In this document: positions 12,468 through 57,268 of the stretch, piece by piece
Position numbering within the stretch: position 1 is the stretch's first letter
Layout: every line of letters starts with the position of its first letter
NCBI RefSeq assembly: GCF_057098645.1
Contig: NZ_CM169472.1
Direction: 5' to 3' (one strand)
Length of the DNA: 64,000 bases
Notes under the pieces: model-generated
What the model was told of the DNA's origin: nothing
The model's database searches: none
The model's input: only the letters and a program-made list of their open reading frames with translations
Translations under genes and position numbers: made by a program

Positions 12468-12557
12468 TTGCCTCCCCCCCGTTGATGGGTAAAATAGCCG
12501 CAATTTTTCGTTTTCAACAAGCGCGGCGCGATGCCGCTTACTCAAGAAGAAAGAATT

Positions 12558-12622
12558 ATGACGTTGTCTCCTTATTTGCAAGAGGTGGCGAAGCGCCGCA
12601 CTTTTGCCATTATTTCTCACCC
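12558..12622 (+). pseudogene. prfC: Native 5' end of prfC ([22 protein letters not shown]...) cut off by prophage integration
   Basis: atgacgttgtctccttatttgcaagaggtggcgaagcgccgcacttttgccattatttctcaccc encodes the canonical PrfC N-terminus, then reading diverges into phage DNA at 12623. Confidence 0.8.
12609..12622. other. attL core (attatttctcaccc), identical 14-bp copy at attR
   Basis: Exact 14-bp identity with 55730..55743; chromosomal sequence on the left, phage sequence on the right. Confidence 0.7.
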
Positions 12623-12786
12623 CAATAATTAAGCCCAAATTAAAGCTCTTTTACTCTTTCAAAGTCCTTTCAGTTAATTGAGTGTTAATCATATAACTCA
12701 TTTAATAACATGATGTTATGTGGTTTCTTTAATTGAAAATTCTTTCATGTAACTTTAAATCGATCAGGTTGCTTTCATCAAAAATC

Positions 12787-12843
12787 TGTACATGTGCTTG
12801 TACATAATGTACAAAACAGCAGAGGTGGTTTTTTATTTGTACA
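12787..12843. promoter_or_regulatory. Cluster of four TGTACA motifs directly upstream of int; candidate integrase arm-type or repressor binding sites
   Basis: TGTACA at 12787, 12799, 12808 and 12838; TTGTACATAAT recurs at the attR side (55656). Confidence 0.4.
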
Positions 12844-12852
12844 AGGTGAGTA

Positions 12853-14243: not shown

Positions 14244-15851
14244 TTATGGCTGAGACTCTGGTTTAGCAATCTCGTTTATAAATTTCTTAGCTACAACAGT
14301 CTCATACTTTCTATAATCATCAAGATATTGAACATCTATATGATTTTCGTAGCGAGCATTAAATTTATTTGCAGCCCCTGTTTTATCATCTTTACGTTCA
14401 TCCGTTGGTCTGAAAAATTTATGGTAGCGGCGGGGTGATACCCCCTCAAAATCACAAAATATTACTTTGGAAGATTCTTCGTTCTTTGTTATTGCATCAT
14501 TATGCAGATCAAGAGCAAGACTTTTATCAAATGGCTCTATATATACTACTTTTTTTATTCCAGCTGCGACAATATGCCTTGCACAGTTGTGGCAGGGATA
14601 GGTTGTCGTAAAAAGAATTTTATCTTTAGTATCGCCGTTTTGTTTTCTAGCCATTGATGTAATGACGTCCATTTCAGCATGAATTGATCTGGAGTACTCC
14701 ATTACACTTGATATTTTGCTGTCTTTGTAAATGCCTTCTGCAATATTATCTAATTTGTTTAGAAGTCGTGTTATATTAATATCGGCAACAGTTTGTCCTG
14801 CGGAAATACCTAATACAGTTCTTACTTCGGTTGATAATATGCTTTTTATACGGTCTTTAATTTTTAGCTTGTTTGCATCATTATAACACTTACCACTTTT
14901 GTGAACGCATCGATGATCGTTATCAAAATCATCACTGCTATACAACCCGCCACCAGCTTTAGGTACGTCGTTCTTACCCACGGCAAGCAAATTCCCTTCA
15001 TCATCAAACAGTGCAGCCCCTACTTGACGTGATAAACAAGCTGATTGTAATGATGTTGAAAAGGCAGCATACATACCTTTCTCGTTAAAAGTTGGTGTTA
15101 AACCATTTTTGCCATGAATAAGACCGAAAAACCGATCAATCTTCTTCTTTAATTCACTTTTTTGGCTGAAGTTATTTTTAATAAAAAAATCTGAATCAAG
15201 AATGGTTTCCCCGGTTCTTTGTCCATACGGATCAGAGGATTTATTATCAATATTGATAATTAAATGAAGGTCGTTCTTTGTCGATTCGTCATCAATGAGA
15301 TTCTGAATTCGGTAATCTAAATCGCGCAAAACTCCTAACAAATAGAAATTATGCTGATATATAACTCTGAATAACTCTATTTCTTCCGGCCTTTTGAATT
15401 GATCAATGATGAAGACAGTACCTTTATATTCATCATTATTATAATCATTATTATAATCAATATTATTTTTCTCTGCTGCGATTGCTGCAATAGCAGCTTC
15501 TGCAAGCAACTCATTTTTTTTGTAATGTTTACGAAGTTTATTGGCAATATCCTGGAGTTTTAAATGTCTATTAGCTTGTGTGCTTTCGGATACCTTCAGT
15601 GCTGCTGGCTCAAAATATAATGGGTTTTCCATAAGCGCACTTATGCGGATGTGTACAACATTATACCCCCATTCTTTGGATATCTCTTCGATAATTTTGT
15701 TTATCGTTCTCATGCCACATCCAACATATCCACACAATCCAAGATAAATATCTTTTGATTGTCGTGAATTCACAATCTCAAGTGATGATGCCGATGTTGA
15801 GCCTTTTTTTTCATTCAGCTTTTGTGGAGTTTTTTTTGCTGCTTCAGCCAT
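14244..15851 (-). CDS. AvcD-like / dCTP-deaminase-family defense protein: N-terminal degenerate P-loop NTPase (kinase-like) fused to a C-terminal dCMP/cytidine-deaminase (CDA-fold) domain
   Basis: 535 aa; degenerate Walker A LGLCGYVGCGMRT (aa 38-49); deaminase zinc motifs HAEMDVI (aa 391) and PCHNCARH (aa 419-426); AT-rich cargo between int and xis. Confidence 0.7.
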   Translation of the reverse strand: MAEAAKKTPQKLNEKKGSTSASSLEIVNSRQSKDIYLGLCGYVGCGMRTINKIIEEISKEWGYNVVHIRISALMENPLYFEPAALKVSESTQANRHLKLQDIANKLRKHYKKNELLAEAAIAAIAAEKNNIDYNNDYNNDEYKGTVFIIDQFKRPEEIELFRVIYQHNFYLLGVLRDLDYRIQNLIDDESTKNDLHLIINIDNKSSDPYGQRTGETILDSDFFIKNNFSQKSELKKKIDRFFGLIHGKNGLTPTFNEKGMYAAFSTSLQSACLSRQVGAALFDDEGNLLAVGKNDVPKAGGGLYSSDDFDNDHRCVHKSGKCYNDANKLKIKDRIKSILSTEVRTVLGISAGQTVADINITRLLNKLDNIAEGIYKDSKISSVMEYSRSIHAEMDVITSMARKQNGDTKDKILFTTTYPCHNCARHIVAAGIKKVVYIEPFDKSLALDLHNDAITKNEESSKVIFCDFEGVSPRRYHKFFRPTDERKDDKTGAANKFNARYENHIDVQYLDDYRKYETVVAKKFINEIAKPESQP

Positions 15852-16391: not shown

Positions 16392-16586
16392 TCATTCAAT
16401 AACTCCTGCAAACCTGTAAATCTTGCGTGAAGCCCATTTATTTGGGCATGATTTAATATCAGGATCTGGAAAATCAGGCCTGTACTTCTGGCCAGTTCTC
16501 CGGTTTACGCTGTTCCAGCGAAGAACTGTCGATACTGAAACGCCACAGAAGTCGGCGACTTGTTTAGTTGTCATTAAGTTGTTCAT
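16392..16586 (-). CDS. xis: Excisionase / AlpA-family HTH DNA-binding protein
   Basis: 64 aa; MTTKQVADFCGVSVSTVLRW HTH, then the proline-rich FPDP segment typical of AlpA/Xis. Confidence 0.65.
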   Translation of the reverse strand: MNNLMTTKQVADFCGVSVSTVLRWNSVNRRTGQKYRPDFPDPDIKSCPNKWASRKIYRFAGVIE

Positions 16587-28495: not shown

Positions 28496-29548
28496 ATGAA
28501 AAATACTGTAAAAATAAACAGTGTTGATTTAATCAACGCTGATTGCCTGCATTTTATTCAGTCCCTGCCTGATAACTCCATTGATCTGATTGTTACCGAT
28601 CCGCCGTACTTCAAAGTGAAGCCCAACGGCTGGGACAATCAGTGGAAAGGGGACGAAGATTACCTGAAGTGGCTGGACCACTGTCTGGCCCAGTTCTGGC
28701 GGGTACTGAAACCAGCCGGAAGCCTTTACCTGTTCTGTGGGCATCGCCTGGCATCTGATATTGAGATCATGATGCGTGAACGTTTCAACGTGCTTAACCA
28801 TATCATCTGGGCGAAGCCGTCCGGACGTTGGAATGGGTGTAATAAAGAAAGTCTGCGCGCATATTTTCCTGCCACAGAGCGCGTTCTGTTTGCTGAACAT
28901 TACCAGGGGCCATATCGCGGCAAAAGTGACGGCTATGCGGCAAAAGAAAGGGAACTCAAACAGCACATAATGGCACCGCTGATATCGTATTTCAGGGATG
29001 CTCGTGCCGAACTGGGTATAACGGCAAAACAAATTGCTGAAGCCACAGGTAAGAAAAATATGGTTTCCCACTGGTTTGGTGCCAGTCAGTGGCAGTTGCC
29101 GAATGAGGCTGACTATCGGAAGTTACAGGCACTGTTTTCCCGTATAGCGGCAGAGAAGTTTCAGGAACAACAACTGGAACAACCACACCACCAGCTGGTG
29201 GCATCTTATGATTCACTGAATCGCAAATATTCTGAATTGCTGGATGAGTTTAAATCTCTCCGGCGCTATTTCTCCGTATCAGTCTCCGTGCCTTATACCG
29301 ATGTCTGGATGCATAAACCCGTTCAGTTCTACCCGGGTAAACATCCGTGTGAGAAACCGGCGGATATGCTCAGGCAAATAATCAATGCCAGTAGTCGACC
29401 TGGTGATCTGGTTGCTGATTTTTTTATGGGATCCGGTTCCACAATAAAAGCAGCAATGGCGCTGGGGCGTCGGGCCTTAGGTGTTGAGCTTGAGTCAGAG
29501 CGGTTTAACCAGACAGTGAAAGAGATAAACGAGCTGGTGGGGAAATAA
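28496..29548 (+). CDS. Orphan DNA methyltransferase (N6-adenine/N4-cytosine class, DPPY motif)
   Basis: LIVTDPPYF catalytic motif and a C-terminal SAM-binding region ([13 protein letters not shown]); no adjacent restriction gene. Confidence 0.8.
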
Positions 29549-54676: not shown

Positions 54677-54996
54677 TTCAATTCCTTATGTGTTTGGCTC
54701 GGTATACTGTATCCCATGAGATTTTACGTAAATTGTCATATCTAATATTGCAATTATAATTGTAGCTAATTATTTTAAATTAGGTGAAAGTTTATTGCGA
54801 ATGATTAACTCGGAAAAAAAGATTTCTCACGGTTAGTAAGTATATTAGGTCAGTATTCAGATATGAGTAGTGTTAACGACTAAATTTGCAATCACATATA
54901 GATTTTTGTTCTAATAAAGATGTTTTATTTGGCGATTCGTCAAGCATCTCCACTTAAGCAATCGTATATATTAAGAGTGCAAAAGAGAAGGGACAA

Positions 54997-55095
54997 CGTT
55001 GCTCGCACTCTGGAATAAATATCGGGTATTGTTAAAGTGTGGTGATACATAATTGTACGGGATATTGAGTGGCCTGAAGTCCCAGTCATTGAGTA
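54997..55095 (+). pseudogene. Remnant of a tail fiber assembly gene 3' end
   Basis: ...ctggaataaatatcgggtattgttaaagtgtggtgatacat... is ~70% identical to the tfa 3' end at 54255..54336; reading frame broken. Confidence 0.6.
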
Positions 55096-55213: not shown

Positions 55214-55462
55214 TTAGTGAACAAACCACTCGTCAGCAGACTCCCAGGTATCTTTCAGAGTTTCCTGAACAAAAGTTTTAGCTGAATCTTTATCGGCAGT
55301 GCGCGTAACAGAAAGGCCATCGTTGCTGGTGGTTTTTACGATCACCTCTACATCGTCATAACGCTTACTGATGCGTCGAGTTAATTCTTCCTTTAACGCA
55401 TCCACAGCACCGTTTGGCATTTTAGTCATTTTCTCTTTGGCTATGCAGATCTCAATACGCAT
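55214..55462 (-). CDS. DinI-like protein (SOS-regulated RecA modulator family)
   Basis: 82 aa, [11 protein letters not shown]...[16 protein letters not shown] closely parallels chromosomal DinI. Confidence 0.85.
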
Positions 55463-55477
55463 AAAAATCCCTCTACA

Positions 55478-55521
55478 CTGTGTTTGTATACAGTATTATT
55501 TTTAACTGTATGAATAAACAG
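55478..55521. promoter_or_regulatory. Two tandem LexA boxes (CTGT-N8-ACAG) in the dinI-like promoter
   Basis: CTGTgtttgtatACAG at 55478..55493 and CTGTatgaataaACAG at 55506..55521, directly upstream of the minus-strand dinI-like start. Confidence 0.8.
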
Positions 55522-55546
55522 TGTCAATAGAACAAAGATTGCTGCA

Positions 55547-55662
55547 TGTACAAATGTTCTTTGGCTACAAATACACCTACTGATCATGTTCTGCTATGCT
55601 CTGATACCTCCAAAATGTACAATCAGCGGCATGAATTTTTCTTTGTACATATGATTGTACAT
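55547..55662. promoter_or_regulatory. TGTACA motif cluster on the attR arm / phage-supplied prfC promoter region
   Basis: TGTACA at 55547, 55616, 55644 and 55657; mirrors the cluster at attL. Confidence 0.4.
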
Positions 55663-55681
55663 AATCAAAGAGACAACAATT

Positions 55682-57268
55682 ATGACAAGCCTTTTGGCCG
55701 CAGAGGTAGCGAAAAGAAGAACCTTTGCAATTATTTCTCACCCGGACGCCGGTAAGACTACCATCACCGAGAAGGTGCTGCTGTTCGGACAGGCCATTCA
55801 GACTGCCGGTACAGTAAAAGGCCGTGGTTCCAACCAGCACGCTAAGTCGGACTGGATGGAGATGGAAAAGCAGCGTGGGATCTCCATTACTACGTCTGTG
55901 ATGCAGTTTCCGTATCACGATTGCCTGGTTAACCTGCTCGACACCCCGGGGCACGAAGACTTCTCGGAAGATACCTACCGTACCCTGACGGCGGTGGACT
56001 GCTGCCTGATGGTTATCGACGCCGCAAAAGGTGTTGAAGATCGTACCCGTAAGCTGATGGAAGTTACCCGTCTGCGCGACACGCCGATCCTCACCTTTAT
56101 GAACAAACTTGACCGTGATATCCGCGACCCGATGGAATTGCTCGATGAAGTTGAGAACGAGCTGAAAATTGGCTGCGCACCGATCACCTGGCCAATTGGC
56201 TGCGGCAAGCTGTTTAAAGGCGTTTACCACCTTTATAAAGATGAAACCTATCTCTATCAGAGCGGTAAAGGGCACACCATTCAGGAAGTCCGCATTGTTA
56301 AAGGGCTGAATAACCCGGATCTCGATGCTGCGGTTGGTGAAGATCTGGCACAGCAGCTGCGTGACGAACTGGAACTGGTTAAAGGCGCGTCTAACGAGTT
56401 CGACAAAGAGCTGTTCCTTGCGGGCGAAATCACTCCGGTATTCTTCGGTACTGCGCTGGGTAACTTCGGCGTTGATCATATGCTGGATGGCCTGGTGGAG
56501 TGGGCGCCTGCGCCGATGCCGCGTCAGACCGATACCCGTACCGTAGAAGCGAGCGAAGATAAATTTACCGGCTTCGTATTTAAAATTCAGGCCAACATGG
56601 ACCCGAAACACCGCGACCGCGTGGCGTTTATGCGTGTGGTGTCCGGTAAATATGAAAAAGGCATGAAACTGCGCCAGGTGCGCACTGCGAAAGATGTGGT
56701 GATCTCCGACGCGCTGACCTTTATGGCGGGTGACCGTTCGCACGTTGAAGAAGCGTATCCGGGCGATATCCTCGGCCTGCACAACCACGGCACCATTCAG
56801 ATCGGCGACACCTTTACCCAGGGTGAGATGATGAAGTTCACCGGTATTCCGAACTTCGCACCAGAACTGTTCCGTCGTATCCGCCTGAAAGATCCGCTGA
56901 AGCAAAAACAGCTGCTCAAAGGGCTGGTACAGCTTTCCGAAGAGGGCGCGGTGCAGGTGTTCCGTCCAATCTCCAACAACGATCTGATCGTTGGTGCAGT
57001 TGGTGTGCTGCAGTTTGATGTGGTGGTAGCGCGCCTGAAGAGCGAATACAACGTTGAAGCAGTGTATGAGTCAGTCAACGTTGCCACTGCCCGCTGGGTA
57101 GAATGTGCAGACGCGAAGAAATTCGAAGAGTTCAAGCGTAAGAACGAAAGCCAACTGGCGCTTGATGGCGGCGATAACCTCGCTTACATCGCTACCAGCA
57201 TGGTCAACCTGCGCCTGGCACAGGAACGTTATCCGGACGTTCAGTTCCACCAGACCCGCGAGCATTAA
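55682..57268 (+). CDS. prfC: Peptide chain release factor 3 with a phage-supplied replacement N-terminus
   Basis: Translational GTPase with G1 motif [12 protein letters not shown]; N-terminus [16 protein letters not shown]... replaces native [17 protein letters not shown]... Confidence 0.9.
55730..55743. other. attR core (attatttctcaccc)
   Basis: Exact copy of 12609..12622; phage sequence on the left, native prfC on the right. Confidence 0.7.

Follow-up and report, generated by a model that had tools for sequence, protein, structure and literature searches.

The 64,000-nucleotide stretch of Escherichia coli chromosome analysed here (contig NZ_CM169472.1, in the following called the window) contains a cdtI-like lambdoid prophage of about 43 kb, which is inserted in codons 17-21 of prfC, the gene encoding release factor 3 (RF3). 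The interval 55547-55680, which precedes the prfC start codon, belongs to the attachment site of this prophage, as the arm that faces prfC and that forms attR after integration. On the whole, the interval is probably best understood as an attP arm that combines putative arm-type sites for the integrase (Int), a replacement 5' end for prfC and a candidate promoter.

The 14-bp core of the attachment site is present as two exact duplicates, one at each end of the prophage (Table 1). In a four-way alignment of attP, attB, attL and attR, for which the K-12 locus and phage cdtI were used, the sequence switches at this core. The attR-side and attL-side sequences of the window adjoin in the attP of phage cdtI (NC_009514) and are 99% identical to it; contiguous attP copies were also found in the two metagenome contigs L189 and L271. 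The DNA 5' of the rebuilt prfC start codon has no counterpart upstream of prfC in K-12, and the similarity to K-12 starts only inside the coding sequence. The first-pass annotation had taken the DNA upstream of the rebuilt start to be phage DNA, and the match to the cdtI attP together with the absence from the K-12 prfC upstream region bears this out. On the left side of the prophage the order is yjjG, the native prfC upstream region, the prfC' codons, the core, AT-rich phage DNA and int. On the right side, tail-fibre genes are followed by a dinI-like gene on the minus strand, the arm, the ATG at 55682, the core, the rest of prfC, osmY, ytjA and yjjU.

The insertion lies inside the 5' coding region of prfC, and an intact open reading frame (ORF) of 528 codons is restored by element sequence. 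Because the crossover is located 48 nt inside the coding sequence, the ribosome-binding site (RBS) and the first 16 codons are phage-supplied as well. With a recoded RBS and 16 recoded codons on the arm, integration rebuilds an intact RF3 gene. The N-terminus of the hybrid RF3 differs from the native start, and the Prokaryotic Genome Annotation Pipeline (PGAP) annotates RF3 from the ATG at 55682. Between codon 8 and the core (codons 8-18) phage and host prfC differ at eight nucleotides in six codons. All eight differences are synonymous, a pattern that marks selection to keep the RF3 N-terminus functional, and the conserved N-terminal coding sequence is retained across about 170 arms. Judged by these comparisons, the supplied coding segment is maintained by purifying selection.

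In three further genomes (Xenorhabdus griffiniae L149, Pectobacterium betavasculorum L107 and Budvicia aquatica L111) an element-type arm with a replacement prfC 5' end is found beside native neighbours, namely rimI or serB-ytjB. One or two cargo genes (LysE-family, hipBA, acyltransferase) lie between the arm and these neighbours, and in the 3.6-5 kb that were read upstream no element genes were seen. Such loci look like decayed elements, whose supplied 5' end is now the only start of prfC.

Table 1. Features of the prophage ends and of the prfC region, in window coordinates
Feature	Position	Strand	Basis
Candidate native prfC promoter TTGCCT-16-TAAAAT, left at attL and pointing through prfC' to int	12468..12495	+	consensus scan only
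Truncated native prfC' (ATG 12558): 21 native codons, then phage codons, TAA	12558..12632	+	sequence, K-12 alignment
attL core copy, ATTATTTCTCACCC	12609..12622	+	exact duplicate; alignment switch point
attL arm (int-proximal attP arm) with four TGTACA repeats	12623..12852	+	sequence reading, arms of relatives
Tyrosine integrase, IntSXT cluster, 412 aa	12853..14091	+	Pfam, identity
dinI-like phage cargo gene	55214..55462	-	PGAP DinI-like family; NCBIfam DinI E = 2.8e-20
Two LexA boxes CTGT-N8-ACAG (55478-55493 and 55506-55521)	55478..55521		pattern
TGTACA repeat 1 (distal)	55547..55552	+	offset -197 from core end
Candidate extended -10 TGcTATGCT, predicted start ~55607	55592..55600	+	positional counterpart of the relatives' element; pattern and comparison only
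TGTACA repeat 2, inverted copy of repeat 4; overlaps -10 hexamer TACAAT (55618-55623)	55616..55623	+	repeat analysis
Tandem pair of TTGTACATA, 12-bp period; proposed arm-type Int sites	55644..55661	+	conservation
Phage-supplied RBS (AAGAGA) and first 16 prfC codons	55668..55729	+	alignment
Rebuilt prfC, hybrid RF3, 528 aa	55682..57268	+	ORF, alignment, PGAP
attR core copy	55730..55743	+	duplicate and four-way alignment

The window contains 16 copies of TGTACA. Eight of them fall into two clusters, one in the attR arm (55547, 55616, 55644 and 55656) and one in the attL arm (12787, 12799, 12808 and 12838, the last just before the RBS of int). Given the local base composition, four copies within about 220 bp are expected with P ~1e-6 for each arm, and if 16 sites are placed randomly in 64 kb, four of them fall within 120 bp with P = 4.5e-5. 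The four motifs which the first-pass annotation had noticed upstream of prfC are thus confirmed in position, and their clustering is non-random. Both arms share a direct similarity of 35 nt, which is centred on the tandem pair TGTACAT(A/G)TG(A/C)TTGTACATAAT. Repeat 1 is limited to the enterobacterial phage version of the arm.

The integrase of the prophage is 98% identical to that of phage cdtI and comprises the Pfam domains Arm-DNA-bind_3 (residues 3-90, E = 5e-16), Phage_int_M and Phage_integrase. The integrases of cdtI and SXT were assigned to one prfC-targeting phylogenetic cluster (PMC8138268). We sampled relatives of the element in two independent ways, by integrase homology, where no motif is imposed, and by motif scans. 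Among the elements found by homology, those of Salmonella (Int 84% identical) and Xenorhabdus innexi (64%) have the same rimI/yjjG-prfC' context, and their attL arms carry four TGTACA copies just before int, with the remaining arm diverged. In the elements of Serratia (61%), Pseudomonas (52%) and Acidovorax (51%), prfC' and the core are followed by a direct repeat pair with a 12-bp period and then by an inverted repeat copy just before the RBS of int. The repeat unit in Acidovorax, CGTACATA, is non-palindromic; the attL arm there contains CGTACA/CGTACA with an inverted TGTACG. Retrieval from IMG/VR by integrase yielded only relatives with 96-99% identity, which are often cut at int, and a motif scan of IMG/VR gave five matches.

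A scan of one genome per species for TGTACA-N3-12-TGTACA-N60-90-ATTTCNCACCC revealed 79 loci, compared with about 10 expected by chance, and about 70 of them are prfC 5' ends. At these prfC ends the gap between the two copies is invariably 6 nt, even though 3-12 nt were allowed, and the pair lies 100/88 nt (±3) from the end of the core, with 60-90 nt allowed. They represent roughly 35 species of Acinetobacter, together with Xenorhabdus, Vibrio, Shewanella, Pectobacterium, Serratia, Marinomonas, Pseudomonas, Burkholderiales, Neisseriaceae and further groups. A relaxed scan of metagenomes, which required NGTACA twice, gave at least 120 loci, at least 103 of them at prfC 5' ends, and several contiguous attP forms. 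In 103 metagenome arms among the matches listed, the bases before the two GTACA copies are T/T in 63, C/T in 22, T/C in 6 and other combinations in 12. The first base varies independently in the two copies, and the unit is therefore a directional (T/C)GTACA(T/A)A and not a palindrome. Since the scans required (T/N)GTACA twice, the conservation of those bases in the matches is by construction; the independent evidence from the scans lies in spacing, position, flanks, context and number of matches, to which the integrase-based sample is added.

It could be argued that the GTACA pair is a native regulatory site of prfC, for instance in Acinetobacter. This reading was rejected. The 2 kb upstream of the relatives' arms are mostly non-homologous between species and contain cargo such as aadA, insertion sequence (IS) elements, McrBC, Fic, HipBA and phage tail genes, and the arm is also joined to DNA other than prfC (L101, L167, L236, L245, L252 and L279). 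The arm is therefore element DNA and not the native regulatory region of prfC. Moreover, the native prfC upstream regions of K-12, Salmonella and X. innexi are without the pair, and several well-known Acinetobacter species are not among the matches of the scan.

As the repeats are found in both arms, are phased, keep a fixed distance from the core and track the lineage of an integrase which has an arm-binding domain, arm-type Int sites are the best explanation for them, and we infer that Int binds there. The first-pass annotation had listed the TGTACA motifs within a phage-supplied promoter region of prfC. A role as promoter elements does not fit their presence in both attP arms and beside int, nor their fixed 12-bp phasing and core distance. 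According to our proposal, the TGTACA-centred repeats would be binding sites for the N-terminal arm-binding domain of an integrase of the IntSXT cluster, arranged as a 12-bp-phased tandem pair of (T/C)GTACA(T/A)A plus extra copies. Together with the int-proximal repeats, those of the arm would assemble the recombination complex at the 14-bp core within prfC.

Alternatively, an excision factor or some other phage or host regulator could be the protein that binds the repeats, which would then act as operators that control the transcription of int and prfC. Their location immediately 5' of int and within or near the prfC leader would suit such a role, and a small AlpA/Xis-like ORF with weak matches is encoded at 16392-16586. 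We regard this as unlikely, because both arms carry the repeats, their distance from the core is fixed, they follow the integrase family through phages, integrative and conjugative elements (ICEs) and small islands with unrelated regulators, and they belong to an integrase with an arm-binding domain; in lambda the sites of the excision factor are typically confined to one arm. The ORF at 16392-16586 lies on the minus strand, convergent with int, and would encode a helix-turn-helix protein of 64 aa, which is weakly similar to the Gifsy-1 Xis/AlpA excisionases (E ~5e-4). It is a candidate for the recombination directionality factor of the prophage.

A role at the RNA level was considered as well, in which the palindromic TGTACA would form a hairpin in the prfC 5' leader and affect stability or translation. 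The RNA 55606-55700 can fold into an 11-bp stem of repeats 2 and 4 (-19.3 kcal/mol, z = -2.3; 4 of 200 shuffles equal). However, the int-proximal arm, which is not part of any prfC transcript, carries these repeats too, and no Rfam family matches in the interval. In 40 of the 103 metagenome arms among the matches listed, at least one copy starts with C, A or G, which breaks the self-complementarity and keeps the direct repeat, as does the attL arm of Acidovorax described above. The independent variation of the first bases and the recurrence of the repeats in an untranscribed arm point to a protein site at the DNA level, and an RNA hairpin was rejected as highly improbable.

In lambda, attP contains arm-type Int sites in both the P and the P' arm. 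The likeness to the window element consists in the N-terminal arm-binding domain and in short directional repeats on both sides of the core, including adjacent tandem copies. In contrast, the lambda core is intergenic and rebuilds nothing, its arm consensus is another one and its int is transcribed toward attP from pL/pI, while the arm in the window doubles as the 5' end of a gene and as a probable promoter. The Salmonella phage SPN3UB (JQ288021, L083 1190-1500) has an integrase that is 46% identical and an attP that bears the 5' end of lepA (MKNIRNFSIIAHID). Like the window element it has repeats flanking the core on either side and preceding int, as well as the phage-borne 5' end of a translational GTPase gene, but it differs in its target lepA and in its repeat, which is TGTCCA/TGGACA and not GTACA. 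The same strategy is here directed at the corresponding G1-motif region in the gene of a paralogous translational GTPase. The repeat sequence tracks the integrase lineage, with GTACA in integrases from 84% down to 51% identity and TGTCCA in SPN3UB. A metagenome contig of Pantoea agglomerans (L179) encodes an integrase with 56% identity which is not located at prfC and adjoins genes for an MFS transporter and a YdgH/BhsA-like protein. A single TGTACA is present there, upstream of int in TGTACATAAT, followed by AATTTCTCCATTAC, which suggests a different target specificity within the integrase family.

Of 5426 complete E. coli genomes, 699 have the same phage-type arm directly 5' of prfC. The cargo upstream of the arm varies among the carriers, with cdtABC in phage cdtI, other genes in strain EBJ001 and IS26 in strain FY10. 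In EBJ001 the arm is conserved only from the equivalent of 55513 onward; the dinI gene is absent and other cargo is found 5' of the arm. Since the upstream cargo differs, the arm is the sole constant sequence 5' of prfC in these 699 genomes. In E. coli FY10 (NZ_CP095816) the IS26 is inserted inside the arm at the equivalent of 55584, about 150 bp 5' of prfC. This natural deletion variant has 98 bp of phage sequence left before the prfC ATG; it retains TGcTATGCT and the three proximal repeats, and repeat 1 and everything upstream are gone.

The native promoter has been left 43 kb away at attL, so that the arm would have to supply a promoter. Where in the arm it is located was approached by comparison with the relatives. 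Among 53 non-redundant relatives, 37 have a -10 hexamer (at least 5/6) located 35-75 nt 5' of the repeat pair, compared with 7-14 of 53 in three control windows; for a TGn-extended -10 at that distance the numbers are 26 of 53 and 3-7 of 53. The typical element of the relatives is TGCTACAAT (TGnTAYAAT type), 51-53 nt from the pair, with a poor -35 as expected for an extended -10. Its positional counterpart in the window, TGcTATGCT, lies 43 nt from the pair and is identical in Trabulsiella. An alternative element is TGTACAAT (55616-55623), which contains the hexamer TACAAT and corresponds to TGTAAAAT in Xenorhabdus, Budvicia and Pragia; TGTA(C/A)AAT is conserved in Trabulsiella, Symbiopectobacterium, Xenorhabdus, Budvicia and Pragia. 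On this comparative evidence the phage probably supplies the promoter, and we place the candidate in 55592-55623, at either TGcTATGCT or TACAAT; the extended -10 TGcTATGCT is the most likely candidate and TACAAT the alternative. The arm would thereby supply a promoter for the rebuilt prfC in place of the native one. With either candidate the tandem pair would be part of the transcribed leader and repeat 2 would be situated at or just past the start, so that two or three repeats would lie at or just downstream of the transcription start. A terminator hairpin directly 5' of the -10 element, as part of a general insulated cassette, was considered and rejected, as it is present in only 6 of 52 relatives.

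Several points weigh against this picture. Apart from the built-in conservation of the scanned bases and the other proteins which might bind the repeats, a strict sigma-70 consensus scan revealed no plus-strand promoter in 55547-55680, and the placement of the promoter therefore rests on comparison. The candidate -10 hexamer of the window matches only 4/6 and has a poor -35. In Symbiopectobacterium TGcTATG is without the final T and TACAAT is retained, so that this arm does not decide in favour of TGcTATGCT and gives no choice between the two candidates. In addition, a promoter-like sequence TTGTCA-16-TATAAT (11/12) is located at 54733-54760 on the plus strand, which is a possible source of read-through. 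Finally, prfC is dispensable in E. coli K-12, and a ΔprfC strain is on record; given this dispensability we infer, rather than observe, that prfC is expressed in the lysogens.

Following these points, the arm might have no dedicated promoter at all, and prfC would either depend on read-through from upstream or be barely expressed, which would be tolerated as RF3 is dispensable. The missing strong consensus promoter in the arm and the near-consensus site at 54733-54760, from which no predicted terminator separates prfC, are in line with this, as is the situation in SXT, where setR is co-oriented directly 5' of prfC. We still consider it improbable, although less so than the alternatives discussed above for the repeats. 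The upstream cargo differs among the carriers, throughout the family a -10 element is enriched at a set spacing, purifying selection acts on the replacement coding sequence and dinI lies antisense in the path of any read-through. The site at 54733-54760 is followed on the plus strand by a sub-threshold match to the Rfam family IS009 (54873-55054; 37.8 bits compared with a gathering cutoff of 117, E = 7.6e-7). The whole stretch 54733-55054 belongs to an AT-rich cargo region which replaces cdtABC of phage cdtI, and transcripts from there would run antisense to dinI toward prfC.

The suggestion of the first-pass annotation that prfC may have come under phage or SOS-linked control is supported in one part only. 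The phage-derived arm, the native promoter at a distance of 43 kb, the comparative enrichment of the -10 element and the precedent of SXT speak in its favour, while its link to the SOS response is not supported. Correctly recognised was a LexA-boxed dinI-like promoter that reads the opposite way: the gene lies on the minus strand, and the two LexA boxes bracket the -10 of a minus-strand promoter TTGACA-18-AAAAAT (55527..55498; -35 at 55527-55522, -10 at 55503-55498). The LexA boxes belong to this divergent dinI cargo gene. If LexA or the divergent dinI transcription governed the promoter into prfC, RF3 would be responsive to DNA damage, and two good LexA boxes 160-200 bp 5' of the prfC ATG may suggest so. 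No overlap of a LexA box with a promoter reading into prfC was established, however. The sole plus-strand promoter-like match which overlaps a box, TCTACA-16-TATTAT at 55472-55499 with LexA box 1 in its spacer, reaches only 9/12, and such plus-strand matches occur in the region at chance frequency (7 found compared with 5.1 expected). The boxes fit the minus-strand dinI promoter exactly and are at least 70 bp 5' of the candidate prfC -10 elements. The dinI/LexA segment is also outside the conserved module, as the arm of EBJ001 starts at 55513 and the wider family is without the segment. SOS control of prfC is therefore not supported and appears very unlikely. A third good LexA-type box, TACTGTAAAAATAAACAGTG, was found inside the prophage at 28506-28521, far from dinI.

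Among the closest known parallels is the SXT/R391 family of elements. For SXT it was reported that the element supplies prfC with a new N-terminus and a new promoter (PMC8409611, citing Hochhut & Waldor 1999), and the SXT/R391 attP/attR at prfC are described in the same 1999 work, as cited in PMC8409611, PMC2791158 and PMC8138268. SXT/R391 and the window element share the target at the prfC 5' end, the core position and the integrase cluster. In E. coli cq9 we identified a genuine SXT element, with TraG, EexS, SetCD, CroS and SetR encoded directly 5' of prfC and with the published SXTjun-F primer sequence (PMC10866021) at its junction. In the arm of this element gtgTGTACAaatccgTGTACAaac lies 18 nt before the new prfC ATG, and two more GTACA pairs are present in the attL arm. 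SXT resembles the window element in that a 12-bp-phased GTACA pair precedes the new ATG by 18-20 nt and the opposite arm has GTACA pairs as well. Within the int-side arm of the cq9 element (L177 38091-38690) about 240 bp are duplicated, and in both copies a GTACA pair precedes a segment of about 60 nt that starts with catgacacaaa.

There are also clear differences, as SXT is a conjugative element and the window element a lambdoid phage. In SXT int is inverted and located about 1.3 kb from the core behind xis, whereas int in the window is co-oriented with prfC and lies 230 bp past the core. Expression of the SXT int needs SetCD (PMC4344509). Upstream of the SXT arm a co-oriented setR is found, in the window the divergent LexA-boxed dinI, and the SXT arm is without the two extra distal repeats. 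A second parallel is provided by dusA-specific integrative elements such as IMEVchUSA3, for which promoter activity was measured (PMC8409611). These islands are of the same kind, with an element-supplied 5' end and promoter, but differ in target gene, integrase lineage and excision factor; their promoter activity is a measured one, while the arm promoter of the window is predicted from sequence.

Seven of the sampled elements (window/cdtI phage, Salmonella, Xenorhabdus, Serratia, Pseudomonas, Acidovorax and Moraxellaceae L167) have int next to the core, and in all seven the gene has the orientation of prfC and starts about 200-260 bp past the core. The candidate native prfC promoter and a 24-codon prfC' remnant (12468-12852) point into this co-oriented int. 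No terminator was predicted between the native prfC promoter or the core and int, so that int of the lysogen may use a host housekeeping promoter. It is conceivable, although we put it forward only tentatively, that the arm promoter reads into int in the circular form, that integration swaps the promoters and that Int bound at the GTACA repeats tunes the expression of both int and RF3. If this is true, transcription in the circular form would start at the arm promoter and pass through the prfC leader and the core into int; after integration, expression of host RF3 would depend on the phage promoter and that of int on the host prfC promoter. Occupancy of the repeats at or downstream of the transcription starts by Int would then tune the production of integrase and of release factor 3.

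Related systems are known. Pcirc of ICEclc crosses the joint of the excised circle and drives the integrase gene, and the integrase of P4 represses its own promoter. Similarly, the proposed arm promoter would cross attP into int, and the int-adjacent repeats could allow autoregulation.

Adjoining int at the attL end, a 535-aa ORF (14244-15851, minus strand) represents defence cargo. It is assigned to the anti-phage dCTP deaminases (NCBIfam NF041025 with 465 bits, cutoff 400; PADLOC dCTPase E = 2e-164).

The arrangement found in the window is a phage example of the kind known from SXT/R391 and the dusA islands, and the underlying principle, in which the interrupted gene is repaired by the inserting element and receives a promoter from it, is already established. 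A literature search for described SXT arm-type sites, or for TGTACA in the context of attP, returned nothing relevant, and the family-wide GTACA architecture and the extended -10 element appear to be new to the searched literature. The 12-bp-phased GTACA repeats at a fixed distance from the core are offered here as a candidate arm-type motif for the prfC-targeting IntSXT family, including SXT/R391; a defined motif would make these elements, and what is left of them, easier to recognise and would help to engineer their att sites. About 13% of the complete E. coli genomes (699/5426) express, or must express, RF3 from a phage-built 5' end, and Stx- and Cdt-converting lysogens are among them. A translation-termination factor would accordingly have a promoter and leader of phage sequence in many pathogenic strains.

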